This document shows, in pieces, positions 4,065 to 55,229 of a stretch of 64,000 nt of DNA. Where the stretch lies: positions 177,668-241,667 of the forward strand of contig CBDUZE010000002.1 of NCBI GenBank assembly GCA_965371625.1, in the 5' to 3' direction. Under the pieces are notes generated by a model. It saw nothing but the letters and a program-made list of their open reading frames with translations, ran no database searches and was not told where the DNA came from. How positions within the stretch are numbered: position 1 is the first letter of the stretch; each line of letters starts with the position of its first letter. This stretch comes from an uncultured Alphaproteobacteria bacterium (GTDB lineage Bacteria; Pseudomonadota; Alphaproteobacteria; CBDUZE01). The translations under genes and the position numbers were made by a program.

Positions 4065-4141
4065 GCGTCGTCGCGCCCTCGGACCCGGGGTCCACGCAAG
4101 GACCGGGCGGCAACGCCGGCGCGTTGCCTCGCGGTCGGGCG

Positions 4142-4798: not shown

Positions 4799-4799
4799 C

Positions 4800-6044: not shown

Positions 6045-6170
6045 CGGCGCGTCCGGCTTCGCAGGCGCCAACGCATGGTGTATCGTTTTCATGCCGGCTC
6101 TTGGCCGGTGGGCGGCGGCGAGGCCGCGGGGCGGTGAGCTCGCGCCGGCGATTAAGCGCCGCGGAGAGAT

Positions 6171-6902
6171 ATGAAAGACCAACGCAACGGATCGGCTTCC
6201 AGGGTTCTGGTCTTCGTCCCGACCTTGAACGACACGGAGCTCTTGGCCGAGATCGTGGTCGGCGTGAGGCGCCTGTCGAATCGCTACAGCGTGTTAGTGC
6301 TCGACGACGGCTCCCACGCCGCCCACCTACCGGCGCTCGAGGATCTCGACTGCCTGCTCTTCCGCCTGCCCGACAACCTCGGGCTCGGCGCCTGCACGAA
6401 CATCGCCTTCGACCACGCGCTCAGGCACGACTACGAGGCCGTGATCCGGATCGACGCCGACGGCCAGCACCCGATCGAGCGCATTCCTGAGCTGCTGGCG
6501 CCGCTGGAGAGGGATGAGGCGGACGTGGTGGCGGGCTGCCGGGTCAACCACAACTTGGGCACGGGCGCCTCGGCGCTGGCGCGTAGATTGATCAAGTCCT
6601 ACTTTGTCGGGGTGGCCAAGATACTCACCCGCGGCAGGGCGCCAAGCGACCTCAACACCGGCTTCTTCGCCATGAACCGGCGCGCCGTCGCGACCATCAA
6701 TCAGCACCAGCTCGAGCGCTTTCCCGAACCCCAGCTTTATATTCTGGCCTGCCGCGAGCAGCTGCGGGTGACCGAGGTCCCGATAGAGCAGGTCGAGCGC
6801 AAGTTCGGCTCTTCCACGCTGAACCTGGCCCAGGCGGCGGCGATGTTCTACCGCTTCAACATGTTCGTTCTGGGCGAGCTGTTGCATGGCTCGCGCCGAT
6901 GA
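6171..6902 (+). CDS. Glycosyltransferase family 2 (DPM/DPG-synthase-like)
   Basis: 'VLVFVPTLNDTELLAEIVVG...VLVLDDGSHAA' carries the GT-A DxD-type N-terminus. RBS 'ggagag' before ATG 6171. Confidence 0.8.
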   Translation: MKDQRNGSASRVLVFVPTLNDTELLAEIVVGVRRLSNRYSVLVLDDGSHAAHLPALEDLDCLLFRLPDNLGLGACTNIAFDHALRHDYEAVIRIDADGQHPIERIPELLAPLERDEADVVAGCRVNHNLGTGASALARRLIKSYFVGVAKILTRGRAPSDLNTGFFAMNRRAVATINQHQLERFPEPQLYILACREQLRVTEVPIEQVERKFGSSTLNLAQAAAMFYRFNMFVLGELLHGSRR

Positions 6903-7273: not shown

Positions 7274-8397
7274 ACCTCGAGCGTCGCCGTCACCACCCGG
7301 TCCTCGGAGAAGCCGGCCTCGACCAGCTCCCGCCCGCGGTCGCCCATCCGCCGGCGCAGGGCCGGATCCTCGATCAGCCGAGCGAGCGCCGCCGCCAGCA
7401 CCTCGACGTCGCCGGGTGGCACCAACAAGCCGTTCTCGCCCTCGCGGGTGATCTCGCGGCAGCCCGGGATGTCGCTGGCGACGATCGGGCGGCCGCAGGC
7501 GGCGGCCTCGATCAGCACCTTGGGCACCCCTTCGCCATAGGTCGAGGGCAGGCAGACGACATGCGCCCCGGCGAACACCCGGGCCATGTCGGTGCGCCGC
7601 CCCCACCATTCCACCCCCCCTTCCCGCGACCATTTCTCGAGCGTCGGCTCCGGCACCGCGCGCGGGTTGCTGGCCTTGCTGTCGCCGATGAGGGCGAAGC
7701 GGGCCTCCACCCCTCGGGCGCGCAGCAGCCGCGCCGCCGCAACGAACTCGGCCACCCCCTTCTCCCAGATCATACGGGCGGGCAGGATGACGAGCGGCGG
7801 GCCGGCGGGCTCGGGGGAGGGCGCGAAGGCGCTCAAGGAAACGCCGGAGCCGCGGATCAGCACCATGCGCTCCGGCTTGACCGCGCCGCTCCGCGCCAGG
7901 GTCTCCATGTCGCCGGCGTTCTGGACGATGACCCGGCCGTTGGGATGGCCGGTGGCGATCCGGTAGGCCATGACCGCGAGCCGGCGCAAGAGCCCCGCGC
8001 CAGCGCCCGTGGAGACGAAGACCTGCCCCAGACCGGTCACCGCCGCCACCACCCCCGGCACGCCGAGCAGCCGCGCCGCCAAGCCACCATAGAGCAGCGG
8101 CTTGATGGTGAGCAGGTGCACGAGCTCGGGGCGCAGCCCGCGCATCAGGCGCCAGAGCGCGATCAGCGTCCTCACCTCCTGCCACGGGTTGGTGCCGCGG
8201 CGCGACAGCGGAATGGGGTGGAAGGCGAAGCCGGCGTCGCTGAGCGCCTGGACCGTGAAGCCTTCGGGCGCCCAGACGTGATCCTCGGGCGCTGCCACGT
8301 GGACCTGATAGCCCGCGGCGCGCGCCGCCCGGGCGATGGGCAGCCGATGCGACATGAAGAAGTAGGACTCGTTGACGATGTAGAGCAGCTTCGCCAT
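7246..8397 (-). CDS. Glycosyltransferase family 1/4
   Basis: Start ATG 'MAKLLYIVNESYFFMSHRLPIA' at 8397. GT-B C-terminal motif 'STYGEGVPKVLIEAAACGRPIVASD...GENGLLV'. The 5' part of the track ORF (to 9069) is a GC-rich extension. Confidence 0.8.
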   Translation of the reverse strand: MAKLLYIVNESYFFMSHRLPIARAARAAGYQVHVAAPEDHVWAPEGFTVQALSDAGFAFHPIPLSRRGTNPWQEVRTLIALWRLMRGLRPELVHLLTIKPLLYGGLAARLLGVPGVVAAVTGLGQVFVSTGAGAGLLRRLAVMAYRIATGHPNGRVIVQNAGDMETLARSGAVKPERMVLIRGSGVSLSAFAPSPEPAGPPLVILPARMIWEKGVAEFVAAARLLRARGVEARFALIGDSKASNPRAVPEPTLEKWSREGGVEWWGRRTDMARVFAGAHVVCLPSTYGEGVPKVLIEAAACGRPIVASDIPGCREITREGENGLLVPPGDVEVLAAALARLIEDPALRRRMGDRGRELVEAGFSEDRVVTATLEVYRALLAGR

Positions 8398-37914: not shown

Positions 37915-39081
37915 GGTGGCGCCCGCTCGAGGTCGCAACCCGCGCCATCTCCCAACTCGCGATCACGGCCTGTTGCACCCATCTCAGGGGCATGCAGGAA
38001 CGGTGCAACTAGGTATCCAAACCCCACCAGACGAACAAATTCGCGGCGCGCCGGAGCCCCCTGATGGGGTGCCGCGCGCTTTTCACAAGCGCCGCCGGCC
38101 AACGCGAGAACGGATTATCGCAACCAATAGTCGGTACACATCAATGACTTCGACAAATCTTGGTCGGGCGAAAACGTGTCGGCGTTGGTGGAAAACCAAG
38201 CTGGGAAAAGCAAGAACTACGGTTGATTAGGCACCCAGAGAGGTATAGTATGCGTTCTTCGATCTAAATGCGGGAAAGTATCTTCTAGGTACTTTATGGT
38301 GATTGCGGCCTCACTCCCATTTTGTACAAATTCGGCTTAAGAATCAACATCTTGCAGCCGTGTTGCGAGCGAGGCAAGGGGATACCTGGAGGCTCAATTG
38401 AGTTAGGTCGCCTATCCAGACCGATTTTGATCGGCACCTTATGGTGAGTCTCTGAGCATAGAAGTCACCGCGGATGCCAGCCTGGTGGCTGTTGTGACCC
38501 AGACGAGACGCTCGGATTGACCGACATGTCCCAATCGATGCTTTTGGGGGTGTGGCACACGAGAGACTGTAGGTATACGAACTGGCGTCCGTTTCGGCAC
38601 TCGGTCATTGGTTCTCTAGCCGGACGCCAGGACATCACTGACCCTGGCCGCTTTTCGCTCCTTCTGGTAACCGCGAGCCGCCCGTCAAACACTGGCGAGG
38701 CATTGCAATCAGGATTGGACCATAGAGGGAAGGTGTGGATCAGAACCCTCCGCGACGCAATCAGGATCGATTGGCATTTGACCGACCTGGTTCCCGGGCT
38801 TTGTTCGATAGCCAGAGACCAAATTGCGCATCGTTTATCACGTCTTGTTTCACGCCTGCTACAGGGTCAACCGCGCGCCCAATTCCCGGACCGCGGCTGT
38901 GGCATCATCATTTCCGGATTACCGGACAGGTCGAGAGGCTTGACGACGCGGCAGAAAATCCCTCCTGGGGCGCGAGCCAATCACTATGGCCATCACTCGC
39001 AGCTTCTTCTCACTTCATAGTGACCACGGTGGAAACAACTGGGTAACGTCGACTTTAGATCGGGAAGCAAAGGAGCACAAG

Positions 39082-39936
39082 ATGTGTACATTTTTGAAAT
39101 TTCTGCTTCTGAGTGTGAGTCTTCTGGTATACGCGGCCTATATCCCCGGGGCGCTCAGTCAAGACCCCAGTTTTGTAATGAAACGTGCGGTAAAGTATTT
39201 CGACGATACCGCCGTGCCGCAAATCATAGGAGGTACGATTGCAGATCCATCGGACTGGCCGGCAACGTTTGTATTTATTAGTCCTCAGGGTGGCGGCTGT
39301 ACGAGCACTGCAATTGGCCCAAAGGTAATCTTGACAGCAGCTCATTGCATTGGCGATAACGCTAAGGGTATTGTGGAACTGAATGGACGCACGGTGGCAG
39401 CTGCATGCTATCATCATCCTGATTACCACAACAACGTGTCGGACACTGATCCGAAATGGTCCGAAAAGGTATCTCCAGACTTTGCACTTTGTATAACTGA
39501 CGACCAGCTTGCAGGGTTAGATTTCGAGAACATCGATAAGGAGGGAACCGAGCTCAAGCTTGGGCAGACTATCCAACTTGTTGGTTTTGGATGCAATGCA
39601 ATCGGCGGAACGGACAACGGGTTTGGCGTTCTATATGAAGGCAATTCCGCCGTCCAGAGCCTGCCCACGCCACCGAGCTACTATACGATAACACTCGGTG
39701 GTGCGGCTGTCTGTTATGGAGATAGTGGCGGTGGAGCGTACGTACTCTTAAATCCACCGGCAAAGGCACGTCGGGTTTTGATGGGTGTGGCCTCTCGCGG
39801 CAACATCTCCACAAGATCCTTGCTCTCGACAACTAGCTTGTCTGGCTTTATTTCTTGGGCTGATTCCTTAGCCGGGCGACACAACACGAAGATATGCGGG
39901 ATAGATACCGGTGTTCCAGGGTGCAGATCGATGTAG
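39082..39936 (+). CDS. Secreted trypsin-like serine protease (S1 family)
   Basis: RBS 'aaggag' then ATG. Signal peptide 'MCTFLKFLLLSVSLLVYAAYIPGALS'. Propeptide then 'IIGG'. Catalytic triad 'LTAAHC', Asp, 'GDSGG'. GC ~48%. Confidence 0.8.
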   Translation: MCTFLKFLLLSVSLLVYAAYIPGALSQDPSFVMKRAVKYFDDTAVPQIIGGTIADPSDWPATFVFISPQGGGCTSTAIGPKVILTAAHCIGDNAKGIVELNGRTVAAACYHHPDYHNNVSDTDPKWSEKVSPDFALCITDDQLAGLDFENIDKEGTELKLGQTIQLVGFGCNAIGGTDNGFGVLYEGNSAVQSLPTPPSYYTITLGGAAVCYGDSGGGAYVLLNPPAKARRVLMGVASRGNISTRSLLSTTSLSGFISWADSLAGRHNTKICGIDTGVPGCRSM

Positions 39937-40010
39937 GACCCGATTTACCTTCACCCTAGAAATCATAAGACCAATTGTGATGTCCCCGGCATAATGAGGA
40001 GTGTATCGGC

Positions 40011-42113
40011 ATGCTGAGATTTGGGAATAGATTGACCATAATAGTAATTACCTTTTGTCTTACAGCGTCCACAAGTTCGCGCGGTGACATGGTTACCTTA
40101 TTCGTTGTTAGCTCCGCGATAACAAAAGACGTCGTCGAATATGTGGCAAGAATCGGCAAGCCCCAACGCATACACGTGAAGAAGGGTCAGAGATTTTCGG
40201 ATATTTTGAGAGCGCGATGCGGTCGCCTCAATAACAACTTCATTAATTTATTGAGAACGTCATCGGCGACAGAATTGGGAAAATTGTTGAATTTGGATTT
40301 TGCGTATGAAAGAGATCAATTTATAGAACTCCCTGCGTGTTTGAGTTTGCCACAATATACGGCCACAGAGAGAATAGTTGAAGAAGATGACAGCCCTTGG
40401 GATTATTTTTCCAATGACTCTGCAGGATTTATGTATTTTGAGACTCCATCGCCAATGGTGAAACGGATTGTGGCTACAGCGGCAGATGCTCCGACCACCT
40501 TTATGGACGCCTTTGGGCACTTGAATCCCGGCTTCACATCCTCGGGTATCATTCACGAAGGAGAAGTGGTTCAAGTACCAAAAACACCGGCTGTTTGGTC
40601 ATCTCTGCAAATTCGGCCCGATATCGCAGCGTTTCTCGAGCCGGTCTCAGATGTCCTTGCTCGGCTCTTGATGGAAGGAGGACAAACCCGAGAAACTGCA
40701 CTTATTGAGAGACCAGAAGAAATCATTCTGTATGCACCTCTAACTAATGCGCAGCTGGTTGAGTTTAAATCTTGTCAGGCATCACAGACCTCAACAAATC
40801 TTGACTATGCCTTTGACCCAATGGAGTTAACGAAAGTTATCACCGTCAACAAAAGGTTCCTCCAAGAAGAGCGGCGGTCGACCCCAGATAGGACGACAAT
40901 AGTGATCCCGGATACTGGTCTCTATACCCATGGGAGGACACCATTTCATAACGGACGCTTGATACTGGTCGATCGGTATAGTCCTAGCGATCCCTACGCG
41001 AGCATTCGTCCTTCATCCAAATACCCGTATCGTCATCACGGCACCTACGTAGCTTCAGTAGCCCTGGGGGGCGCGAGCTTTCTGCAGGCATTCGATGTCA
41101 TGGGAGTGGATATTAAGATTGCGCCTATTAATATAATCGAAGAAAAAGAAAGGATATGCTGGCGTTCAAATGCGGCTGCATACAGTTGCCCTTACCATCG
41201 CGTAAAGACGGAGGCTTTCAACAATGCAATGGCAAGTGCCGAGACTCACAATGCCATTCTCAATCTTAGCGTAGGGCGCCTAACACGATTTATCGGCCTT
41301 GAAAAATATCTGAATAAGGATAGTAGTATATTGTTCGTTGTGGCTGCTGGAAACGCCGGCCAGTCACTTTCGAAAAGAAAGACCTATCCGTCACGGTATG
41401 GCGGGAGCAATAATGATGGGAAGTACAATCTGATATCGGTGGCTGCGCTGGACTTAGACGGCTCGAGAGCTGGTTTTTCAAATTATGGAAGCGAATACGT
41501 TGACATCGCGGCACCAGGTTGTCGTCAGCGCGTGTTTGAATACAATGATGAGTCACGTAGCTTCAGCTTCCAGAGGAAATCGGGCACATCATTTGCAGCG
41601 CCGTTGGTCTCGTTTACTGCAGCATTGATCAAGTCCTTTTGGTTGGGCGCGTCGCCGCGTAAAATCAAACACCGCATTATCACAGCTTCGGATATTTCCG
41701 AAGAACTCTGGGGGAAGGGCGAAGTGGCCGGTGGGCGCATGCTAAATGTTGTGAAAGCGGTTTCTTTGTATCAAGACATAGTAGAAGCTAGAGCTGATGG
41801 AGAATCCAGACTTATTCGGGGTGAGATAGATTCAAATCATCGGATTTTCGAGTTTTGTGATGGGAGACTCACGCTTTACCGAAAGGATAACCCAGGGCGC
41901 CCGCAAATAAAGAAAATTACACCTATTGCAGACCCGACATCTCAGGAGCCGAGAATTCTGGTTTACTGGACCAATGTTGAGGGTGTATTGAGGCCTGAGA
42001 TATGCGCGCAACAAGAAATTACCATAAAGATAACAGAGGATTTTACCGGGCGGGTATACGAGTTACCGACAGATAGTATAATCGACGTTGTTTTTTCGGA
42101 GCGGTTGAACTAG
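40011..42113 (+). CDS. Secreted subtilisin-like serine protease (S8 family) with N- and C-terminal extra domains
   Basis: RBS 'gaggag'. Signal peptide 'MLRFGNRLTIIVITFCLTAS'. Catalytic 'VIPDTGL' (Asp), 'HGTYVASVALGG' (His), 'GTSFAAPLVS' (Ser). GC ~45%. Confidence 0.85.
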   Translation: MLRFGNRLTIIVITFCLTASTSSRGDMVTLFVVSSAITKDVVEYVARIGKPQRIHVKKGQRFSDILRARCGRLNNNFINLLRTSSATELGKLLNLDFAYERDQFIELPACLSLPQYTATERIVEEDDSPWDYFSNDSAGFMYFETPSPMVKRIVATAADAPTTFMDAFGHLNPGFTSSGIIHEGEVVQVPKTPAVWSSLQIRPDIAAFLEPVSDVLARLLMEGGQTRETALIERPEEIILYAPLTNAQLVEFKSCQASQTSTNLDYAFDPMELTKVITVNKRFLQEERRSTPDRTTIVIPDTGLYTHGRTPFHNGRLILVDRYSPSDPYASIRPSSKYPYRHHGTYVASVALGGASFLQAFDVMGVDIKIAPINIIEEKERICWRSNAAAYSCPYHRVKTEAFNNAMASAETHNAILNLSVGRLTRFIGLEKYLNKDSSILFVVAAGNAGQSLSKRKTYPSRYGGSNNDGKYNLISVAALDLDGSRAGFSNYGSEYVDIAAPGCRQRVFEYNDESRSFSFQRKSGTSFAAPLVSFTAALIKSFWLGASPRKIKHRIITASDISEELWGKGEVAGGRMLNVVKAVSLYQDIVEARADGESRLIRGEIDSNHRIFEFCDGRLTLYRKDNPGRPQIKKITPIADPTSQEPRILVYWTNVEGVLRPEICAQQEITIKITEDFTGRVYELPTDSIIDVVFSERLN

Positions 42114-42202
42114 CGACGGCTACCAGAGATTCCTGGCCGGAGCGGTATTTCACTGCGGGGCCAAGTCGTGGAACAATGCTTCATTGGCCCGGCTACCGTG
42201 GC

Positions 42203-43139: not shown

Positions 43140-43322
43140 GTGAATAGCAATCAGTTCAGAAGATGGCTGGCCAAGCAGGGCTGCACGTTTGGCAAGAAAT
43201 CCGGCGGCCACATCACTATATTTCGCGGTGGCAGAGAAAGCCAAATGCCGGTGCACGGCGGCCGCAAGCAGCTCGGCAAAGGGCTTATGGCAAAGGTCAA
43301 GAAGGATCTAGGACTAGAATGA
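43140..43322 (+). CDS. hicA: HicA-family mRNA interferase toxin
   Basis: 60 aa 'MNSNQFRRWLAKQGCTFGKKSGGHITIFRGG...MPVHGGRKQLGKGLMAKVKKDLGL' carries the HicA dsRBD-like motif. GTG start. Confidence 0.75.
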   Translation: MNSNQFRRWLAKQGCTFGKKSGGHITIFRGGRESQMPVHGGRKQLGKGLMAKVKKDLGLE

Positions 43323-43750
43323 GGTACAGCTACCCGGTTGATTTGACGCCCGATGATAACGACACCCTGCTAGTGACGTTTCCCGACCTGCCGCCGGCCA
43401 CCACGTTTGGCGAAGACGAGGCGGACGCCCTGCTCCATGCCCGCGACGCTCTGACCGCAATGTTCGTCCATTTCATGGACGAGCGCCGGGCGATCCCGCG
43501 TCCCTCGAAGCCCAGGAAGGGCCAGCGGGTTGTCGAGGTAGCGCCCCTGGTTGCGGCGAAGCTCGCCCTTTACGAGGCCATGCGCGCCCAAGGGGTGACC
43601 AAGGCGGCGCTCGCCCGGCGGCTCGATTACCACGGCCCACAGGTCGACCGGCTGCTCGATCTCCATCACAAATCGCGCCTCGAGCACCTGACGCGGGCTC
43701 TTGCGACGCTCGGCAAACGGCTGGTGCTCGAGGTTCGCGACGCGGCTTGA
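43319..43750 (+). CDS. hicB: HicB-family antitoxin (RNase H-like N-domain plus C-terminal HTH)
   Basis: ATGA overlap with the hicA stop. 'LLVTFPDLPPATTFGEDEADALLHARDAL'. C-terminal HTH 'VTKAALARRLDYHGPQVDRLL'. Confidence 0.7.
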   Translation: MRYSYPVDLTPDDNDTLLVTFPDLPPATTFGEDEADALLHARDALTAMFVHFMDERRAIPRPSKPRKGQRVVEVAPLVAAKLALYEAMRAQGVTKAALARRLDYHGPQVDRLLDLHHKSRLEHLTRALATLGKRLVLEVRDAA

Positions 43751-45553: not shown

Positions 45554-45585
45554 GGCGAGGGCCCCGGGGCCCGCCAAGGGTGAGG

Positions 45586-46326
45586 ATGAAGCGCATCGCG
45601 CGGGCCGCCCGCCCGGCCCTCGTGGCCCTGGCCGTGGCCCTGGCCGTGGCTCTGACCGTGGCTCTGACCGTGGCCCTCGCGCCGGCCGCGGCGAGCGCTG
45701 CCGGCGAGGTCCACCGCCAGGTGCCGGTCGAGGTGGATCCCGCGCGCAACTACCTCTTCTACCTGCACGGCGCCTGGATCGAGCGCCACGGCCTCGGCCA
45801 ACCCCATCCCATACATGGGCCGTACCGCTTCGAGGACATCGCCGCGGCGTTTGCCGCGCGAGGTTTCGTCGTCATCGCCGCGGCCCGGCTCCGGGAAACC
45901 GTGGCCCCGCGCTACGCCGAGGGGATCGCGGATCAGGTTCGCCACCTGCTCGCGCGCGGGGTGGCGCCCGAGAACATCACCATCGCCGGCCATTCGAAGG
46001 GCGGCATGATAACGCTCGCCGCCGCCACCCTGCTGCGGGCGCCCACCATCAACTTCGTGGTCATGGCCGGCTGTGGCCGCGAAGGGAGCTCGTTTCGCCG
46101 CGGCTACGAGCGCTTCATCGCGCGCCGCGCCGCCGCGCTCCAAGGGCACATTCTCTCGCTCTACGACCGCGCCGACCGCGAGGCCGGGAGCTGCCGGCAA
46201 GCCTTGGAGCGGGCCATCCGGGTCGACGGCCGCGAGACCACCTTCAGCACCGGGCTCGGCCACGGGCTTTTCTACGCCCCCCGCGACCTGTGGATCGACG
46301 CGGTCGTGAGCTGGGTGGGCGGCTAG
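45586..46326 (+). CDS. Secreted alpha/beta hydrolase
   Basis: Signal peptide 'MKRIARAARPALVALAVALAVALTVALTVALAPAAASA'. 'IAGHSKGG' nucleophile elbow. Confidence 0.6.
   Translation: MKRIARAARPALVALAVALAVALTVALTVALAPAAASAAGEVHRQVPVEVDPARNYLFYLHGAWIERHGLGQPHPIHGPYRFEDIAAAFAARGFVVIAAARLRETVAPRYAEGIADQVRHLLARGVAPENITIAGHSKGGMITLAAATLLRAPTINFVVMAGCGREGSSFRRGYERFIARRAAALQGHILSLYDRADREAGSCRQALERAIRVDGRETTFSTGLGHGLFYAPRDLWIDAVVSWVGG
45620..45682 (+). repeat. 12-bp tandem repeat (gtggc[ct]ctg[ga]cc), about 4.5 copies, encoding a (VALA/VALT)n signal-peptide core
   Basis: Direct reading 'gtggccctggcc gtggccctggcc gtggctctgacc gtggctctgacc gtggccctcgcg'. Confidence 0.7.
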
Positions 46327-46395
46327 CCGTCGCCGACCCCGCCCTCCCGCACCGCGCGGTGGCAGGGCACGATGAGCGAGATCGGATTCGTGATC
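46327..46395 (-). pseudogene. Remnant of an O6-methylguanine-DNA methyltransferase (Ogt) C-terminus
   Basis: The minus-strand translation '*LRKRITNPISLIVPCHRAVREGGVGDG*' contains the Ogt active-site 'PCHR' motif. A 28-nt identical core is shared with the ada 3' end at ~54212-54239. It is bounded by stops on both sides. Confidence 0.45.
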
Positions 46396-46477
46396 CGCTT
46401 TCGAAGCTATCGCGCGCGCTACTTCGAGATGGCGCCGTTGTCACGGCCCAAGGCTCTGAGAAAGCACGCCAGCCTAA

Positions 46478-47488
46478 CTACTCGCATTCCCTGATCGACA
46501 ACCCTTCCGGCAGCACCGTATCGCGATCACCGCAGGCTGTGTCGAGCTGATCCTGGACCAACCCCCTTGCCAGCTTGAGGTTGGCGCCGCGCAGGTCGGC
46601 ATTTCCAAGCACCGTAGCGGTGAGAATAGACCTTGCGAGGTTCGCGTCCTTCAAGACAGCGTTCCTCAAGTCGGCTCCTTCAAGGTTTGCTCTCCCCAGA
46701 TTGGACTTCGTCAGATTGGCGTCACGTAACACGGCTTGCTGTAGATTCGCTCGTTCCAGGTTTGCTGATTCCAGATGAGCACCTTGCAGCTGAGCGTTGC
46801 TCAGATCAGCTCTTTTCAGCTTGGCGCGGCGCAAGTCAACGCCGGTCATTATTGCTCCTCGCAGGATCGCCCTTTCCAATTCAGCAAATTCAAGGGTAGC
46901 TTTCGCGAGGTTGGCTTCGCTCAAGTCAGCCTCTTTCAGGTCCGCTCCATTCATTTTGCAGCCCGTGAGTATGGCGCGCACCAGGTTGGCTTTCTGCAGG
47001 TCCACTCGGCTCAAGTTGACTCGCTTGAGATCCGTGCCACTCAAGTCGGCTTTCTCCAGGTCGGCCCCACTCAACTTGGCCCCTCGCATTTTCGCCCCAC
47101 GCATGTTGGCCTTTTCCAATATGGCCCCGCGCAGATCAGCACCCCCGAGCATGGCCCCTGCGAGGTTCGCCTTCGACAGATCCGCCCCGTTCAAGTTCGC
47201 GGAGCTCAGCATGGCGCGACTGAGGTTTGCGCCATGAAGATCGGCCCGTGCCAAGTTGGCCGAATTCAGGATGGCCCGACTCAGATCGGCGCCTTTCAGG
47301 CTGGCGTTCTGGAGATCGGCGCGCGCCAGATCGGCTCCTTTAAGGTCGCAATTCGGGCATTCTCTCGTCGCCCTTAGCACGTCCACGCTCTTCTTATCGA
47401 AGGCGTGGCCATTGACGAACGGTACAAGCACAGTCGCTACGGCGATAGACGCAATCGTCAGCGTCTTCAGTCGTAGTTTTCTGGTCAT
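46478..47488 (-). CDS. Secreted pentapeptide-repeat protein (copy A)
   Basis: ATG 'MTRKLRLKTLTIASIAVATVLVPFVNGHA' signal peptide. Then about 50 A(D/N)LxxA(N/D)L pentapeptide repeats. C-terminal 'CGDRDTVLPEGLSIRECE'. Confidence 0.8.
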   Translation of the reverse strand: MTRKLRLKTLTIASIAVATVLVPFVNGHAFDKKSVDVLRATRECPNCDLKGADLARADLQNASLKGADLSRAILNSANLARADLHGANLSRAMLSSANLNGADLSKANLAGAMLGGADLRGAILEKANMRGAKMRGAKLSGADLEKADLSGTDLKRVNLSRVDLQKANLVRAILTGCKMNGADLKEADLSEANLAKATLEFAELERAILRGAIMTGVDLRRAKLKRADLSNAQLQGAHLESANLERANLQQAVLRDANLTKSNLGRANLEGADLRNAVLKDANLARSILTATVLGNADLRGANLKLARGLVQDQLDTACGDRDTVLPEGLSIRECE

Positions 47489-47697
47489 CACAGGTTCCTT
47501 CTCAAGTTCCAATCTGCTGAAAAGCCCCTCCTTTGTCACTGATTTGGGTGATACGTTTCCTTATCAAACCCTCCATCCGCATCCGACATTTGCGCCAATT
47601 GCCGTGCTCATGCTATCTCCGCTGGGCCAGTGGGCCGCCGAGAGCGAAGAGCATACCGTGGCCGAGTTGCCGCCGCGCGGCATCACTGCTCGGCGCG
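46478..47697. repeat. Segmental duplication copy A (about 1.22 kb, ~93% identical to 49091-50307)
   Basis: Identity starts exactly at the PRP stop codon and extends ~210 bp upstream of the PRP start. Small indels in the 5' flank. Confidence 0.85.
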
Positions 47698-48287
47698 TCC
47701 TTCTCCTCAATTCGCCCATCAATCAATGATAGACATGGCGCCAGAAATGACAATCAGGATGTCCCCTTAATGTTCTACGTGAATCCCCTTAGCCAAGATC
47801 GCCCAGATGGCTTCTCCCGGCTGCCGACGGCGATAGCACAACGGACGTTCGTGCCACAACTCCCACACTAACCAGCACGGTAGGTCACGATCCTCCCTCT
47901 ACCTGGCTGACTGAGTTGGCGATGGGAAACCCCGCCAAACCGTCAACTCAGGCGCCAAGGGCACGCCTCGCCTTGGGGCGGCCTTGTTTCGGTACCGGGA
48001 ACCTTGAGATTGGCGCACCCCGTTCTCGGGACACAATTCATCGGCGCGCCTGAAGGCGTGGAGCGATGCGTCTCCGCCCTCTTGTTGGCTCGTCGAGCCG
48101 GCGCTGAATTTTCGGTTCTTCTCTCTAGAAAAAAGGAGCGACCCGGACGCCGCCCCTTAACTTTGCGCCGTTAAGCTTGCGGTCGGCCGCTGAGCGTTAC
48201 TTCATCTTCGCCGCGCGATTGGCCAATTTAAGAGCCTCTTGAAGCATTTGCTCCGCTCTTTCGGAATTATGGAGACCCATGCTGCGA

Positions 48288-48720
48288 TCAAGCAATACGA
48301 AGTTGATCATCGAGGCTGAAAACCGGTACTTCAACCCACTTCTTTAGGTGCGGCAAGGCCTTATTGCCTTCCTGATGGCACGCCATGCACGCGCTGCGAA
48401 CACCGGCGAATTTTTGCGAGGCCGGTGTCGCGACCATGAAGGTATGGGAGGAGACATCCCTTGGGTGTGGTTTACTGGCGGTCTTGTTTGAGCGATACCC
48501 GATCGTCGCCATATGACAATCGACGCATTTGACGCCAGCCTTCTCCATCGGGCTTCCCGCATACATCTTGGCATTGGGCCGCATGGCATAGCCGTTCTCG
48601 GAATGACAACTTATACACAACTTTTCAGGCTTCATGCGGAGTTAAGCGTTCTCCCATTTGCCGTGGAAGGTGTGACAGGTCACGCAGCTCATACCGGCCG
48701 TATTGAAGTGGGTACTCTTA
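48288..48720 (-). pseudogene. Fragmented multiheme c-type cytochrome (4 CxxCH motifs in two frames)
   Basis: ORF 48288..48635 has 'CISCH', 'CVDCH' and 'CMACH'. It has no signal peptide or TM. Immediately upstream, in another frame, 'PDFTKSTHFNTAGMSCVTCHTFHGKWENA*' carries a fourth CxxCH. This is consistent with a frameshifted and truncated NapC/NrfH-like or larger multiheme gene. GC ~52%. Confidence 0.5.
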
Positions 48721-49090
48721 GTGAAATCCGGCCACTACGAAGTGAGCGTCCTTGAAAGAATCCTGGCCAGATTGAACACGTTGCGCCTCCCGTAGCATCG
48801 TCAGTGTGTCGGTGGGCGAATCTACGCTCCCGGTATCCTAGGCCAACGAAAATCCGCCCAGGAAAACGAGGTATGCACCTGCCAGAAATACCGAACTAGC
48901 CAGTCGAACGAGCCTCTAGAACGGTTCCAGGTCAATTGGAGCCGCTCTCAGGCCGCGCCGGCGCGGACCCTTGGATCCGCTGCCGTGAGCGAAAAGAATC
49001 TGGAGCGATTCCAGGCGACCTGGAATTGCTCTGGAATACTCGGGTCATTTCTTGAATTCTCTGGCCGATGCATGTGGGAAATGCAGCTAT

Positions 49091-50101
49091 CTACTCGCAT
49101 TCCCTGATCGACAACCCCTCCGGCAGCACCGTATCGCGATCACCGCAGGCTGTGTCGAGCTGATCCTGGACCAACCCCCTTGCCAGCTTGAGGTTGGCGC
49201 CGCGCAGGTCGGCATTTCCAAGCACCGTAGCGGTGAGAATAGACCTTGCGAGGTTCGCGTCCTTCAAGACAGCGTTCCTCAAGTCGGCTCCTTCAAGGTT
49301 TGCTCTTCCCAGATTGGACTTCGTCAGATTGGCGTCACGTAACACGGCATGCTGTAGATTCGCTCGTTCCAGGTTTGCTGATTCCAGATTCGACCGGTTC
49401 AAGTGAGCGTTGCTCAGATCAGCTCTTTTCAGCTTGGCGCGGCTCAAGTTAACGTCGGTCATTATTGTTCCTCGCAGGATCGCCCTTTCCAATTCAGCAA
49501 ATTCAAGGATGGCTTTCGCGAGGTTGGCTTCGCTCAAGTCAGCCTCTTTCAGGTCCGCTCCACTCATTTTGCAGCCCGTGAGTATGGCGCCCTTCAGGTT
49601 GGCTTTCTGCAGGTCCACTCGGCTCAAGTTGACTCGCTTGAGGTCCGTGCCACTCAAGTCGGCTTTCTCCAGGTCGGCCCCGCTCAACTTGGCCCCTCGC
49701 ATTTTCGCCCCACGCATGTTGGCCTTTTCCAAAATGGCCCCGCGCAGGTCAGCACCCCCGAGCATGGCCCCTGCGAGGTTCGCCTTCGACAGATCCGCCC
49801 CGTTCAAGTTCGCGGAGCTCAGCATGGCGCGACTGAGGTCCGCTCCATGAAGATCGGCCCACCCCAAGTTGGCCGAATTCAGGATGGCCCGACTCAGATC
49901 GGCACCTTTCAGATTGGCATTCCGGAGATCAGCGCGCGCGAGATCGGCTCCTTTCAGGTCACAACCCGGGCATTCTCTCGACGCCCTTAGCACGTCCATA
50001 CTCTTCTGCTCGAAAGCGTGACCATTGACGAATGGTCCAAGCACAGCCGCTACGGTTATAGACGCAATCGTCAGCGCCTTCAGTCGTAGTTTGCTGGTCA
50101 T
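49091..50101 (-). CDS. Secreted pentapeptide-repeat protein (copy B)
   Basis: 336 aa, a near-identical paralog of 46478..47488 with the same signal peptide and repeat array. Confidence 0.8.
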   Translation of the reverse strand: MTSKLRLKALTIASITVAAVLGPFVNGHAFEQKSMDVLRASRECPGCDLKGADLARADLRNANLKGADLSRAILNSANLGWADLHGADLSRAMLSSANLNGADLSKANLAGAMLGGADLRGAILEKANMRGAKMRGAKLSGADLEKADLSGTDLKRVNLSRVDLQKANLKGAILTGCKMSGADLKEADLSEANLAKAILEFAELERAILRGTIMTDVNLSRAKLKRADLSNAHLNRSNLESANLERANLQHAVLRDANLTKSNLGRANLEGADLRNAVLKDANLARSILTATVLGNADLRGANLKLARGLVQDQLDTACGDRDTVLPEGLSIRECE

Positions 50102-50307
50102 CACAGGCTCCTTCTCAAGTTCTAATCCGCTGAAAAGCCTCTCTTTTGTCACTGATTTGGGTGATACGTTTCCTTATCAAACCCTCCATTCGTATCCGGA
50201 ACTCGTGCCAATTGCTGTGCTCGTGCCATCTCCGCCGGGCGAGTGCACCGCTGAGAGCGGAGAGCATACTGTGGCCGAGTTGCGCCGCGCGGCATCACTG
50301 CTCGGCG
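49091..50307. repeat. Segmental duplication copy B
   Basis: See copy A. Confidence 0.85.
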
Positions 50308-50374
50308 CTTCCCTGTCCGGGCAGCCCCGCGGCCTCGCTTGAGCGGTGCGCGTCCCTCTCGAAAAGGGCTCGCG

Positions 50375-50587
50375 CTAGTCCATCCCGCCGCCGCGGACCC
50401 GCACGCGCCGTCCCGCCAGCTCCGCGATCACGGTGACCACGGCGATGGCCAGAAATATCAGGGCGCCCAGACCCCAGACCCGGATGCTGGGCGGCATGTA
50501 GATCATCGGGATGGTGGCGTAGAGCGTCGCCAGGACGCCCCATACCGCGAAGATGCTGCCGATGAGCAATGCGTCGAAGCTCTTCAT
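50375..50587 (-). CDS. Small 2-TM membrane protein, last gene of the oxidase operon
   Basis: RBS 'aaaggaga' then ATG 'MKSFDALLIGSIFAVWGVLATLYATIPMIYMPPSIRVWGLGALIFLAIAVVTVIAEL'. 23 bp after the subunit I stop. Confidence 0.45.
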   Translation of the reverse strand: MKSFDALLIGSIFAVWGVLATLYATIPMIYMPPSIRVWGLGALIFLAIAVVTVIAELAGRRVRVRGGGMD

Positions 50588-50610
50588 GACCTTTTCTCCT
50601 TTACTGTGGT

Positions 50611-52296
50611 TCAGTGGCCGCCAGCGGCGCTGCCGCCCACGACGATGGGAACGCTTTCCAGAATCTCGAAGCTCACGGCGGTGAAGGCGTACATGGCGCC
50701 GATCAAGACGAACACGCAAAGCGGTCCGACCCAGGCGCCGTGCCGACCGATGGCCGCACCGCCCCAGGAGACGCTCGATAGATCCTCGATGCCTTGGCCC
50801 GCGCGGCCGACCTCTCCGACCAGACTCCGCACGAGGGCGTAGACGTACACCGCCAGCGCGACCGTCATGAACGTGGCGCCGATACCGACGACACCCATCG
50901 CCGTCCCCCAGACGAAGGGAGCATCGCCTTCATAGCTGAGGTCGAAGAGACGCCGCGGGACGCCCTTGTATCCGGCCACGAGACCGGCGCTGCCGAACAG
51001 CAGCAGCCCCAAGGTGGTGACGTAGGGCATCCTGGCGAGAAGCGATGGGCGCCAGATTCGGCCCCCCGCCAGCGCCGGGATCACGTAGATCAGGGCGGCA
51101 ATGAAGGTGAGCGTGACCGTGCCCAACGTCAGGAAGTGGAAGTAGCCCGGTACGAAGAAGGTATCGCTCAACAACAGCGCCAGCTTCTCCTGAATGAGCA
51201 CGAAGGAGAACACGCCGCCCAGGGCGAGATTGATCACCGCCATCCCGATCGCCGCCATCGCCGGATTGCTCCAGGGGAGCATACCCACCCACCCGAACAG
51301 ACCGCGGGCACCTTGGGCCCTGGCGTGCGATTCGAGCGAGGCGACGATGATCAAAAACACCAAAATCGTCGGCACGGCGATGAACAAGGAGAGCAGTGAC
51401 CCGGACATCCGCACGGCGTCGGCCAACCCGGGCTCGAGGAACATGTGGTAGAGCGAGGTGGGCGGCACGAAGATCAGGTACATGGCGAAAACGAATTTCG
51501 AGACGCGCGCTCCGAAAATCGATTTGACCCCGGTGATGACCTCGACCAGCACGTACCAGATCACAACCGTGGCCATGAGCGGCAGGTAGTGCATGTTGTG
51601 GAACAAGACGTGCCAGCTCATGGTGTAGCCGGAGACCTCGGGCCCGAGCCCGAACGCCCACAGCATGGCGGGCAGAAAGGCGTTGACGCCGGCGACGGCA
51701 CTGACCATGAGCAACCCGGCCCAGGCCACGGAGGCGAAGGCAATCGAGGACCAGGTGTCGATCTTGCCCGCGAGCTTGGGGCGCAGCGCCGTCATCAGGC
51801 TCGAGGCGGCGACCACGAAGAGACCGGCACTGAGCAGGATGTAGCCGAGATAGAAGTAGCCCGCCTCGGTCATCTCGAACTCGACCAGCTCCGGATTGCC
51901 GTCGTAGAGCAGGATCGCTCCCAGGTTGGGCGCGATCTCGCTCAACACGAACCCCGCGGTCATCAGGATCAGGCCCAGCCACGCCAGCGGTCGCCAGGCG
52001 ATGCCTTCGCTGCCATCGGTGTAGACGCTGGCCAGGATGAGCACGAAAGCCGCCTGCATGAAGTAGAGCCAGTAAAAGAAAATGGTGGTTCCATGCAGGC
52101 TCAGCATTGTGTACGCCGTCTCCGGCCCGAGCTCGACAAAGCCAGCGCGGTCGAAGGCCGAAAACGCGCCGTAGACGAGTCCCAAAGCCAGGGCGACGAT
52201 GGCCAGGGCGGTGAAACTCAACAGCAGCCTCTTGTCTCCCTGGGGAAGGGCCTTCAGGCCCTCGACCAGTGGATTCTTGATCGCTTTCTCAGTCAT
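50611..52296 (-). CDS. Heme-copper oxidase superfamily subunit I-like protein (divergent)
   Basis: 561 aa, at least 12 TM. His residues are spaced like HCO helices II/VI/VII/X ('LSLHGTT', 'WHVLFHNMHY', 'YHMF', 'YFHF'). Canonical HH and HxH appear as YH and YxH. RBS 'ggagcag'. Confidence 0.7.
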   Translation of the reverse strand: MTEKAIKNPLVEGLKALPQGDKRLLLSFTALAIVALALGLVYGAFSAFDRAGFVELGPETAYTMLSLHGTTIFFYWLYFMQAAFVLILASVYTDGSEGIAWRPLAWLGLILMTAGFVLSEIAPNLGAILLYDGNPELVEFEMTEAGYFYLGYILLSAGLFVVAASSLMTALRPKLAGKIDTWSSIAFASVAWAGLLMVSAVAGVNAFLPAMLWAFGLGPEVSGYTMSWHVLFHNMHYLPLMATVVIWYVLVEVITGVKSIFGARVSKFVFAMYLIFVPPTSLYHMFLEPGLADAVRMSGSLLSLFIAVPTILVFLIIVASLESHARAQGARGLFGWVGMLPWSNPAMAAIGMAVINLALGGVFSFVLIQEKLALLLSDTFFVPGYFHFLTLGTVTLTFIAALIYVIPALAGGRIWRPSLLARMPYVTTLGLLLFGSAGLVAGYKGVPRRLFDLSYEGDAPFVWGTAMGVVGIGATFMTVALAVYVYALVRSLVGEVGRAGQGIEDLSSVSWGGAAIGRHGAWVGPLCVFVLIGAMYAFTAVSFEILESVPIVVGGSAAGGH

Positions 52297-52317
52297 CGTT
52301 CTGCTCCTGCCCTGCCG

Positions 52318-53319
52318 TCACTCGACGATGATCTTGCCCTTCATCATGTCGTGACCGAGGCCGCAGTAGACGGTGCAGTAGACCAGGTACTCGCCGGGCT
52401 CGGTGAAGGTCATGGTCATCTCGGCCATGGTCCGCGCCGGACGACGCATGATGTGCCCGGCAAATCCGACGTTGACGGAGGCGCCGTGGATGGCGTCCAT
52501 CGACATGATGCGGAAGCGGTAGGGAAGGTCCGCCTCGAGCCGAAGCACCTCGGGCTCGTAGGCGTAGCGCATCGCCATCATATAGATGTCGATCGGCCCG
52601 GTGTCGTCTTGGCCCGGTGAGGTGCTGCCGTGCTCCGCTTCGGCTTCGTCGTGCCCCGCTTCGGCCGCGCCATGCTCCGCTTCGGCTTCGTCATGAGCCG
52701 GTGGGACTACGACGGGCTCCGACTCGGCCGCCTGGTGGCGGTCGCCCGTGGTCCCCATCGAGAGCTCCGCGACCCCCGCGATCGCCTGTTGCTGAACCTC
52801 GGTGAACGCCTGGGCCGAGATCTCGCCCACCGTGTAAGCACGGTAGGCCGCGGTCAGCTCCAATAGCCCGATCGGCGTGTGGACACGGCCCATTTGGTGC
52901 TCGTCGGCCATTGCCTCGTCACCGTGACGGGCAGGGGCAAGCGCCGTTTGGTCGTCGTCGCCATGACCGACGTCACCGGGCATGGCGTTTCGCCCGGACT
53001 CGGACTCCATATGACGCCTGGGTTTGACGCTGCCGTCAGGCAGACTGAACTTTTCGACGAACGCTTCGGTGCGGAGGCGGAAATCGGCCGGCGTCATTCC
53101 GCCGGCAGCGCCGCCGTGACCGCCGTGAACCGCTTTGCTTGCGCCGACCGCCTGTGCTTCGGACAGGAATCTGAAGCTGGTCGGCGCGGCATCATAGGCC
53201 GCCCATACGAAGTAGAGGCTGATGACGGCGAACCCGACCGTGGCAACGAAACCCCACCTCGTGGTGAAATGCCTTCTCGGGCTCTCGCCCGCGAGGCCTT
53301 CGTTCTCTTGCTCTGACAT
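52318..53319 (-). CDS. Heme-copper oxidase subunit II-like protein with CuA cupredoxin domain
   Basis: ATG 'MSEQENEGLAG' after RBS 'ggaggg'. One N-terminal TM. His/Glu-rich duplicated linker 'GHDEAEAEHGAAEAGHDEAEAEHG'. The C-terminal 'AGH...YCTVYCGLGHDMM' gives H..CxxxCxxxHxxM, a complete CuA ligand set. Confidence 0.7.
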   Translation of the reverse strand: MSEQENEGLAGESPRRHFTTRWGFVATVGFAVISLYFVWAAYDAAPTSFRFLSEAQAVGASKAVHGGHGGAAGGMTPADFRLRTEAFVEKFSLPDGSVKPRRHMESESGRNAMPGDVGHGDDDQTALAPARHGDEAMADEHQMGRVHTPIGLLELTAAYRAYTVGEISAQAFTEVQQQAIAGVAELSMGTTGDRHQAAESEPVVVPPAHDEAEAEHGAAEAGHDEAEAEHGSTSPGQDDTGPIDIYMMAMRYAYEPEVLRLEADLPYRFRIMSMDAIHGASVNVGFAGHIMRRPARTMAEMTMTFTEPGEYLVYCTVYCGLGHDMMKGKIIVE

Positions 53320-53486
53320 GACCCAGTCCCTCCGTGAAAGACATTGCTGCCACGCTAGCCCTGGCACCGCGACGGACCCCGCTCGCGGGGAGTGGGTGCC
53401 GCCCTGAACCGTGCTGGAGGCTGGGATCGCTTAGCTGCGGTGGCGCGACAAAACGCGGCGCCACGCGTCAACGACGACAGCCGGGG

Positions 53487-54110: not shown

Positions 54111-55229
54111 TCACCCGGCGGCGGCCCGCTTCTGCCGCGCGGCGGCGCGTTCGCTGGCGAGCAATGCCTCCTTGCGCTCGAGGCCCCAGCGATAACCGCC
54201 GAGACCGCCGTCCTCGCGCAGCGCGCGGTGGCAGGGCACGATGAGCGAGACCGGGTTGGTGGCGCAGGCCCGGCCCACGGCGCGCTGGGCCTTGGGTTTG
54301 CCGAGGCGGGCGGCGATCTCGCCGTAGCTCCGGGTCTCGCCCAGGGGGATGCGCTTGAGCTCCTCCCAGACCCGCCACTGGAAGGCGGTGGCGCGCACGT
54401 CGAGCGGGAGGTCGAGGCGCGGCTCGGCGCCCGCCAGGTAGCCGACCAGCGCCGCGCTCCAGCGCCCCAGGCCACGGTCGTCGCGGCGGATCTCGGCGGC
54501 CGGGTATTCCTGGGCGAGCTCGCCCTCGAGCTCGGCATCGTCGTCGCCGAGATAGACCGCGCAGACGCCGCGCTCGGTGGCGCCGACCAAGAGCCGGCCG
54601 AGCGAGGAGGCGACGACGCTGTAGCGGATGCGGGCGCCGCGTCCGCCCTTGGCGTAGGTCGCCGGGGTCATGCCGAGCTGCGTCGGCGCGCGCTCGTAAA
54701 GCCGGCTCGAGGAGCCGTAGCCGGCCTCGTAGAGCGCCCCCGTCACCGGCTCGCCGCGGCGCAGACCGGCCTTGAGCCGGCCCAAACGGCGGGCGTCGGC
54801 GTACTGGCGCGGGGTGATGCCCATGACGCGCTTGAAGGTGCGCTGCAGATGGTAGGGGCTGAGGCCGGCGTGGCTCGAGAGCTCGGCCAGCGTCGGCGGC
54901 CCGCCGTCGCCATTGCCGGCACCCTGGCCAGCGCCCTGGCCATCGATGTACCGGCACACCCGGCGCACCATGTCGAGGTGGGGATCGCCGGCCTCGGCGT
55001 CGCCGGGGCGGCAGCGGCGGCAGGCGCGGTAGCCGGCCTGCTCGGCGGCCTCGGGCACGGCGAAGAAGTGGACGTTCTCGCGCCGCGGCCGGCGGCTCGG
55101 GCACGACGGCCGGCAGTAGATGCCGGTCGAGCTTACGGCGTAAACGAAGCTGCCGTCGAAACCGGCATCGCGGCTCTCGACGGCGTGCCAGTGCTCATTC
55201 ACGGTCATGGTCGTTGTCTCCGGTGGCAT
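54111..55229 (-). CDS. ada: Bifunctional Ada: N-terminal Zn methylphosphotriester domain/AraC-type HTH plus O6-methylguanine-DNA methyltransferase
   Basis: 'YCRPSCPSRRPRR...CRRCRP' Ada N-terminal Cys4 domain. HTH 'LAELSSHAGLSPYHLQRTFK'. C-terminal 'LIVPCHRAL' Ogt active site. The start is possibly at 55208 ('MTVNEHWH'). Confidence 0.85.
   Translation of the reverse strand: MPPETTTMTVNEHWHAVESRDAGFDGSFVYAVSSTGIYCRPSCPSRRPRRENVHFFAVPEAAEQAGYRACRRCRPGDAEAGDPHLDMVRRVCRYIDGQGAGQGAGNGDGGPPTLAELSSHAGLSPYHLQRTFKRVMGITPRQYADARRLGRLKAGLRRGEPVTGALYEAGYGSSSRLYERAPTQLGMTPATYAKGGRGARIRYSVVASSLGRLLVGATERGVCAVYLGDDDAELEGELAQEYPAAEIRRDDRGLGRWSAALVGYLAGAEPRLDLPLDVRATAFQWRVWEELKRIPLGETRSYGEIAARLGKPKAQRAVGRACATNPVSLIVPCHRALREDGGLGGYRWGLERKEALLASERAAARQKRAAAG

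Follow-up and report, generated by a model that had tools for sequence, protein, structure and literature searches.

Two directly repeated genes for secreted pentapeptide-repeat proteins and a decayed octaheme cytochrome gene in a putatively acquired islet beside an alphaproteobacterial heme-copper oxidase operon

The window analyzed here is a stretch of 64,000 nucleotides (nt) from an uncultured Alphaproteobacteria bacterium (assembly GCA_965371625.1, contig CBDUZE010000002.1, positions 177,668–241,667 of the forward strand), in which two directly repeated genes for secreted pentapeptide-repeat proteins (PRPs) flank the remnant of a multiheme cytochrome gene; window coordinates are used throughout, and the block of interest lies on the minus strand. 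Self-BLAST of 45.5–51.0 kb revealed only one off-diagonal match, in direct orientation, between repeat copy A (46470–47700) and repeat copy B (49084–50312), which lie 2613 bp apart; their alignment of 1232 columns is 93.3% identical and contains 78 mismatches and 4 gap openings, a match beyond chance. Each repeat is composed of 212 nt upstream of the ATG (47489–47700 in A and 50102–50312 in B) and the coding sequence of a PRP, and ends at the TAG stop codon, past which the similarity is limited to imperfect microhomology of no more than ~10 nt (TAGTTAGGCTG versus TAGATAG-CTG). The intact open reading frames (ORFs), of 336 amino acids (aa) each, start from ATG 47488 (PRP-A, 46478–47488) and ATG 50101 (PRP-B, 49091–50101). 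The original prediction, made from the sequence alone, had described two ~1.22-kb copies with ~93% nt identity, a 336-aa protein and ~210 bp of upstream region in each, and an identity limit at the stop codon, all of which was borne out. The spacer between the repeats (47701–49083) also agrees with the predicted ~1.39 kb, being 1383 bp long and holding a cytochrome remnant with four CxxCH motifs, although its GC content is 55.8%, not ~52%. As for the duplicated 212-nt region, the idea of a structured leader RNA or riboswitch was rejected: Rfam gave no hit at the gathering score and a chance snoRNA match alone at E ≤ 1, and RNAalifold applied to three leaders found 0 compensatory pairs.

Both PRP start codons are preceded at a suitable distance by AAGGA, the longest ORFs being of 353 aa from an upstream GTG. 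The signal peptide previously proposed for the PRPs is supported by a heuristic reading of charge, Kyte–Doolittle hydrophobicity and the residues at −3/−1: the first eight residues carry a net charge of +4 (copy A) or +3 (copy B), and a hydrophobic core of 17 residues with a mean Kyte–Doolittle value of 2.1–2.2 is then followed by GHA-F, with small residues at −3/−1 (N-terminus MTRKLRLK-TLTIASIAVATVLVPFV-NGHA-F). In both copies, 52 uninterrupted pentapeptides (~50 had been estimated) occupy residues 47–306 and amount to ~13 coils, a series that exceeds the minimum of eight contiguous A(D/N)LXX-type pentapeptides by which the PRP superfamily is recognized. Pfam PF00805 matches both proteins (E = 2.7e-75 and 2.7e-76), and the PDB sequence matches are all pentapeptide-repeat proteins. 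The AlphaFold2 model based on a 40-sequence alignment (pLDDT 91.3), which superseded a single-sequence model of pLDDT 41, consists of a single continuous β-helix in which a strand recurs at every fifth residue between ~43 and ~310; a short helix caps its N-terminus, and residues 4–25, the predicted signal peptide, form a low-confidence helix. The top 49 Foldseek matches against the PDB were all pentapeptide-repeat or PRP-derived solenoid structures. The PRPs are hence predicted to adopt a right-handed quadrilateral β-helix of ~13 coils, located in the periplasm or envelope. Cysteine residues occur in pairs at 44/47 (CPNC in A and CPGC in B), just before and at the first repeat, and, past the final repeat, at 319/335; copies A and B keep both pairs, and there is an extra internal Cys177. 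The C-terminus, ...TVLPEGLSIRECE, is short and net acidic and contains no lysines.

Close homologues of the PRPs were found neither among 5.8 billion proteins, where the best matches were long cyanobacterial PRPs of at most 50% identity, nor in a JGI metagenome scan, where the best identity was 46%; a search of plasmids by DNA and protein likewise gave no close homologue or donor locus. Both PRPs are also absent from a 15-billion-protein collection by exact look-up with three alternative starts, an absence that may be an effect of gene calling or filtering. By exact look-ups, cox1, ccrM, and the gene for a 70-aa ORF in the window were present in public collections; these genes, from the same 280-kb contig, occur in collections that lack the PRPs.

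PRP-A and PRP-B show 91.4% aa identity, with 57 of the 1011 coding positions and 29 of the 336 residues differing and with neither stops nor indels. The dN/dS value between them is 0.41, and we hold with moderate confidence, on these substitution patterns, that both PRPs are kept by selection and look functional. The differences cluster in the first 262 nt, where they reach 11.8%, compared with 3.5% over the remainder (P = 3e-6); the longest stretch without a difference measures 189 nt (P = 3e-4), and only three sites differ in the final 260 nt. Because the synonymous divergence (dS) itself falls along the PRP gene, from 0.22–0.23 over its 5′ third to 0.03 by its 3′ end, the gradient does not originate from protein-level selection. 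The mosaic of A/B identity fits a partial homogenization of the two copies by gene conversion. In another assembly (L092; ENA ERZ26661859), representing a strain with 98.4% identity to the window along 2.8 kb, the copy in the B position alternates A-type and B-type variants, which fits exchange between the copies, although an ancestral state could account for it as well.

Repeats of this kind raise the question of whether the tandem is false, created in assembly around unrelated DNA from a single-copy PRP gene that varies among strains or from a chimeric join. The window source resembles a metagenome-assembled contig, short-read contigs break here (L092 covers 191 nt of the PRP before it stops, and L115, which is 100% identical to the window and probably from the same sample, covers 37 nt of the repeat), and the last 260 nt of the copies are nearly free of differences. 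However, an artefact normally gives identical copies, whereas these differ at 78 positions and by 4 indels; the unique sequence differs on every side of the repeats, with variant sites at most one read length from each exit; the spacer consists of a unique pseudogene with its own pattern of degradation, which needs PRP sequence on both sides; and L092 independently confirms the left junction. We therefore consider an assembly artefact very unlikely.

The cytochrome remnant in the spacer (48197–49048, minus strand) is the pseudogene of an octaheme cytochrome c with a 588-aa parent, and its nearest intact counterpart, 90–94% identical at the nt level, is a gene for a 588-aa cytochrome with eight heme motifs, all CxxCH, on the contig L117, which served as the reference for mapping the lesions. 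Both the start codon (49048–49046) and the stop codon (48199–48197) lie within the spacer, and the pseudogene retains the signal peptide, the N-terminus, hemes 5–8 (four of the eight CxxCH motifs), and the C-terminal helix. Following the direction of transcription, 40 nt of upstream sequence and codons 1–4 (49089–49037, corresponding to L117 4671–4722) are succeeded, just after codon 4, by a 115-bp insertion with short palindromes (48922–49036) that is absent from L117; next come a homologous stretch (48921–48737; L117 4723–4907), an 899-bp deletion removing hemes 1–4 (L117 4908–5806), a second homologous stretch (48736–48314; L117 5807–6229), a 131-bp deletion (L117 6230–6360), and a last homologous stretch (48313–48000; L117 6361–6672), which includes the stop codon and, 39 nt past it, a terminator-like hairpin with a T-run (48133–48158, minus strand). 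The 299 bp between this stretch and repeat A (47701–47999) match nothing and contain the sole sigma-70-like match (47753–47726); no second occurrence of this segment or of the 115-bp insertion was found, either elsewhere in the window or among the loci fetched.

The four CxxCH motifs (CVTCH, CISCH, CVDCH, and CMACH), which were formerly described as split over two frames, are located in one frame that is interrupted by an in-frame TAA, while the frame changes occur further upstream and near the C-terminus. With only four of the eight motifs left, and with deletions, an insertion, and in-frame stops in comparison with the intact L117 gene, the window copy is a pseudogene. As the cytochrome gene both starts and stops within the spacer, it was not truncated by the duplication, and the proposal that the duplication had captured or disrupted a respiratory gene is not sustained, the lesions being internal. 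Judging from the internal deletions, the insertion, and the stops, the cytochrome decayed independently of the duplication.

A search for the parent multiheme cytochrome, as suggested in the original prediction, led to a well-populated family of octaheme cytochromes of ~586 aa (P0152–P0271) that occurs in Azospira, Azoarcus, and many metagenome-assembled genomes. A 115-aa ORF and neighbouring frames in the spacer match multiheme cytochromes, a search with a repaired translation returned partial homologues, one of which led to the metagenome contig L086 (DNA 88% identical to the remnant), and the reconstructed parent, of 586 aa, belongs to this family, whose intact 586–588-aa homologues include P0152–P0155 and the genes of L116 and L117. 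NCBI gives the family the generic label 'ammonia-forming cytochrome c nitrite reductase subunit c552'. It is placed in the superfamily of NrfA and octaheme nitrite reductases, reaching no NCBIfam equivalog cut-off, and an identity as pentaheme NrfA was rejected, as the parent contains no CxxCK and scores 21.9 bits against PRK11125, for which the cut-off is 595. Decay of the octaheme gene appears to proceed in another lineage too: in L086 (1189–1861) and L087, which are from different metagenome samples, the second Cys of CISCH is replaced by TGA and CVDCH by CVDCR, and an intact version of 99% identity is present as P0152 and in L116. The intact cytochrome of L117 and its 600-bp upstream region (4107–6477) have a GC content of 53–54% within a context of 68–71%, and this gene also looks horizontally acquired from its composition.

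The homology to L117 starts 2 nt after the PRP-B stop codon. This edge may mean that the donor had a PRP gene directly upstream of the cytochrome gene, or it may result from illegitimate recombination at TAG/TTAG microhomology.

The whole block was then placed against related loci, which were found via 90%-identity clusters of cox1, ccrM, and the 70-aa ORF and are 90–95% identical to the window at the nt level across the aligned flanks. All five of these relatives (L089, L090, L091, L113, and L114) have an empty site, in which the 70-aa ORF, 24–50 bp, and a convergent hydrolase gene follow one another, with ccrM and then rnhB beyond. Their homology to the window stops at 50364–50365 and resumes at 46323–46341, so that ~4.02 kb are extra in the window; this islet (46342–50364, GC 57.5%) replaces a native intergenic hairpin of ~24–27 bp. 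In the relatives, the native intergenic DNA forms a 12-bp GC hairpin (−30.7 kcal/mol), the left arm of which is lost in the window. The islet is present in L092 and L115, and L092 carries the same oxidase-to-islet junction; the 52-bp unique left edge between the last gene of the oxidase operon and repeat B (50313–50364, minus strand) is 100% identical in both contigs and absent from the empty-site relatives. A Logan contig from SRR22302371 matches 51312–50276 at 100% identity and may derive from the sample behind the window. The right edge (46343–46388, minus strand) contains part of a gene for an O6-alkylguanine-DNA methyltransferase (..NPISLIVPCHRAVREGG..; NPISLIVPCHR...), 39 nt of which are 95% identical to an ada/ogt-like gene of the window (54212–54250) and also to L090 (8089–8127). 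This scrap, covering the PCHR active-site region and resembling a window gene 8 kb off, may have been copied from the host or borne by the islet. Apart from its matches, no further copies of the islet edges were found in the window or the fetched loci.

The composition of the block is also deviant. Its GC content of 57.5% compares with ~69% in the flank, and the GC content at third codon positions (GC3) is 0.67–0.68 in PRP-A and PRP-B and 0.64–0.65 in the intact cytochrome homologues, versus 0.80–0.93 in host genes including cox1 and ccrM. Presence in some strains and absence from others is thereby combined with a foreign base composition, as in genomic islands. It might be argued instead that the site was originally occupied and that the relatives lost the islet, for instance by recombination, given that direct repeats favour deletions, that no mobility genes are contained in the islet, and that the 5′ dS between A and B (0.22) is at least as large as the split from the empty-site relatives (0.09–0.16). 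Recombination between the repeats, however, would leave one PRP copy and not a clean empty site; the five empty-site contigs represent at least three sequence variants with the same intact intergenic hairpin; the islet GC3 of 0.67 is far below that of the host (0.86–0.93); and the nearest relatives of the cytochrome gene are likewise low-GC inserts in other backgrounds. Ancestry followed by loss is accordingly an improbable explanation.

The sharp ends of the repeat, from 212 nt upstream to the stop codon, and the sequence GTTAGGC after the PRP-A stop, which fits the integron core GTTRRRY, might evoke another origin, in which the leader and PRP form a mobile cassette or the PRP–cytochrome–PRP arrangement is a composite-transposon-like or integron-like element. 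This is extremely improbable and was rejected: no recombinase, integrase, or transposase ORF was found in or beside the islet, 0 inverted-repeat pairs and no target-site duplication at the islet junctions were detected, the GTTRRRY match exists at copy A alone and is kept neither in copy B nor in L117, and no further copy of the unit was found in the window or any collection searched. No tRNA is present in the window.

The flanks of the islet are native. On one side lies the oxidase operon (50375–53367, minus strand), composed of cox2 (52318–53367), the gene for a divergent heme-copper subunit I (50611–52296), and, last, the gene for the 70-aa membrane ORF (50375–50587); on the other lies the convergent alpha/beta-hydrolase-like gene (45580–46326, plus strand), with ccrM and rnhB further upstream. 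A suspicion, raised by its GC content of 64%, that the operon belongs to the same foreign island was dismissed, because its GC3 (0.80–0.92) is host-like and it occupies the same place in the relatives. Functional coupling between the PRPs and the oxidase was also considered. PRP-B follows the last gene of the oxidase operon on the same strand at a distance of 273 nt; the interval contains no predicted terminator, and as the native terminator hairpin is displaced, read-through into PRP-B is possible; further, the PRP-B stop is 42 nt from the cytochrome start, the GC3 of the PRP and cytochrome genes is ~0.65 in both cases, and a precedent exists in pedD, a PRP gene beside those for a pyrroloquinoline quinone (PQQ) alcohol dehydrogenase and cytochrome c550 (PMC12997753). 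These features would suit PRPs working as accessory or scaffold partners of the adjacent oxidase, or of the octaheme cytochrome in the donor. Such a partnership is unlikely, however, in view of the close relatives with empty sites and of a cytochrome that is dead beside two intact PRPs. Furthermore, neither a PRP nor the octaheme cytochrome was found at any of 80 genome loci with subunit I homologues of 51–71% identity, a secreted PRP of the window type was found at none of five loci with an intact cytochrome (L081, L085, L116, L117, and L118), and a multiheme cytochrome was found at none of 20 metagenome loci with distant PRPs. Intact cytochrome genes are neighboured by NrfC/NrfD-like genes, a P19-type 'Iron_transport' gene, two-component regulators, or a paralogous cytochrome. 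PRP remnants beside the cytochrome in L086, L087, L116, L117, and L118 were sought with no success; the PRP upstream in L117 is an unrelated cytoplasmic protein of 449 aa with a host-like GC3 (0.94) and generic repeat similarity only. Because relatives have empty sites, the adjacency to the oxidase is an accident of insertion, and the implied link to a terminal oxidase finds no support in either the five empty-site contigs or the 80 oxidase loci.

A variant of the partnership, in which the donor encoded the PRP 42 nt ahead of the octaheme cytochrome, with matching codon composition, and the two worked together in the periplasm, is very unlikely. The PRP would then have been a rigid scaffold or docking partner of the cytochrome and, duplicated in the present host, would have retained a separate envelope role once the cytochrome was dead; if true, an extracytoplasmic PRP would for the first time be tied functionally to a multiheme electron carrier.

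Taking these observations together, we consider it likely that the block is an acquired islet with a duplicated, gene-converting pair of secreted PRPs and a cytochrome pseudogene, and not a respiratory module. According to the predicted course of events, a small, non-autonomous, horizontally acquired islet would have landed in the terminator hairpin between the oxidase operon and the convergent hydrolase gene, and now carries two paralogous, functional, Sec-exported PRP genes, each with a 212-nt leader and a ribosome-binding site. The unit of leader and PRP would have been duplicated probably at or before the entry of the islet into the lineage, and the copies later partly homogenized by gene conversion, while internal deletions, an insertion, and stop codons would independently have destroyed the octaheme cytochrome gene between them. 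The PRPs would now serve as YjbI-type envelope proteins, apart from the oxidase and the dead cytochrome. As to timing, the unconverted 5′ part of the PRP copies has a dS of ~0.22 (~15 synonymous differences) versus 0.09–0.16 for host genes compared with the empty-site relatives, for which reason the duplication is probably, but not firmly, at least as old as the acquisition.

Several points weigh against the acquired-islet scenario or parts of it. The value of 0.22 is only marginally above 0.09–0.16, which makes the order of duplication and acquisition tentative, and the dN/dS of 0.41, derived from 57 substitutions, is a moderate sign of constraint only. The junctions between PRP-B and the cytochrome and between the spacer and repeat A have no independent assembly support, and the scenario does not account for the coincidence of the L117 homology starting 2 nt past the PRP-B stop. 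The islet bears no integrase, transposase, tRNA, inverted repeats, or target duplication that would point to a mechanism of insertion.

The consequences are modest, and no long-standing question is opened. The locus illustrates that guilt by association can mislead, the neighbourhood of PRP and oxidase having arisen when a foreign 4-kb fragment landed in a terminator. It also offers an example of concerted evolution, in which two young paralogues of an uncultured alphaproteobacterium undergo gene conversion, and adds to the class of secreted PRPs, the first functional study of which dates from 2026, a new sequence that is unusually long with its 52 uninterrupted repeats.

With respect to the neighbouring oxidase, the heme-copper enzyme is very divergent (Pfam COX1 E = 8e-38; NCBIfam CtaD 26 bits versus a cut-off of 670), and its operon includes a CuA-type subunit II and the conserved 70-aa third ORF; the enzyme may be either an O2 reductase of the B family or a nitric oxide reductase derived from that family, of the eNOR/sNOR type (PMC11214002). 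A homologous operon in the metagenome-assembled genome L002 adjoins nirK: downstream of it, at 7526–8086, only the C-terminal ~45 codons of an rnhB-like gene lie on the opposite strand, followed by nirK, and in this piece a vestige of the rnhB neighbourhood of the window is preserved. In L113 (1–2933), cox2 and most of cox1 are missing, with window homology from 50711, whereas the 70-aa ORF and the hydrolase gene are kept, preceded by MarR and adenine glycosylase genes; owing to this loss, the oxidase operon itself is regarded as variable in the clade. Elsewhere in the window, a second low-GC islet (38500–42150, 46–50% GC in a background of ~70%) encodes a Trypsin-family protease (38986–39936, plus strand) and a 700-aa Peptidase_S8 subtilase (40011–42113, plus strand), and a HicB-like antitoxin gene is located at 43163–43750.

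The PRPs are worth comparing with those of known systems. The original prediction held that periplasmic PRPs have no assigned function, which is partly outdated, for a secreted YjbI-type PRP of Caulobacter now has a role in the outer membrane and in envelope stress (PMC12864828): located in the outer membrane or lipopolysaccharide layer, it represses envelope-stress pathways, and the conserved features of its type include a secretion signal, two Cys pairs flanking the helix, and a charged, Lys-containing C-terminal tail reported to be necessary for function (PMC12864828). The window PRPs resemble YjbI/PerA of Caulobacter crescentus (CCNA_01968) in the secretion signal, found by the heuristic reading in both copies, in the Cys pair at each helix end, in the quadrilateral β-helix, and in the alphaproteobacterial host. 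The likeness drawn here is one of architecture, between a protein of 336 aa with 52 repeats and one of 183 aa; the window PRPs have the additional internal Cys177 and are strain-specific, duplicated, and horizontally acquired, whereas YjbI is conserved and chromosomal. The absence of the charged, Lys-containing tail (the window PRPs end in ...SIRECE) speaks against assigning them a YjbI-like role. Resemblance is also seen, in sequence and fold, to Cyanothece Rfr23 (2O6W) and Rfr32 (2F3L/2G0Y) and Arabidopsis At2g44920 (3N90), which share a signal peptide and uninterrupted Rfr coils, although the identity is no more than the shared repeat predicts. An N-terminal CxxC 'disulfide bracket' (Cys39/Cys42) has been described in Rfr23 and a disulfide-stabilized C-terminal cap in Rfr32 and At2g44920 (PMC8145042), and the cysteines of the window PRPs offer counterparts to both, namely the N-terminal CxxC and the C-terminal pair; those three proteins, whose functions are unknown, have ~5 coils, compared with ~13 here.

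PedD of the Pseudomonas ped/exa cluster (PP_2673/PA1981) is similar in that it is a PRP with a predicted extracytoplasmic location and that its gene adjoins those of periplasmic redox proteins, but its neighbourhood is conserved and co-regulated, whereas relatives of the window have empty sites and the cytochrome is dead. With the DNA-gyrase mimics Qnr, MfpA, and AlbG, the window PRPs have the Rfr fold in common. These mimics, however, are cytoplasmic dimers of ~8–10 coils, with loops in Qnr, while the window PRPs have a predicted signal peptide; membership in the Qnr family (NCBIfam penta_rpt_Qnr 140.5 bits versus a cut-off of 240, with a signal peptide present) and in the MfpA family (78.8 bits versus 360) was rejected, and the predicted extracytoplasmic location rules out a gyrase-mimic mechanism. 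From these analogies we infer that the role of the PRPs is most likely that of a YjbI-type envelope-associated binding or sentinel protein, which would be independent of the adjacent oxidase and the dead cytochrome. Altogether, judged by their predicted architecture, the window PRPs are new and unusually long members of the known extracytoplasmic class of YjbI/Rfr-type proteins.

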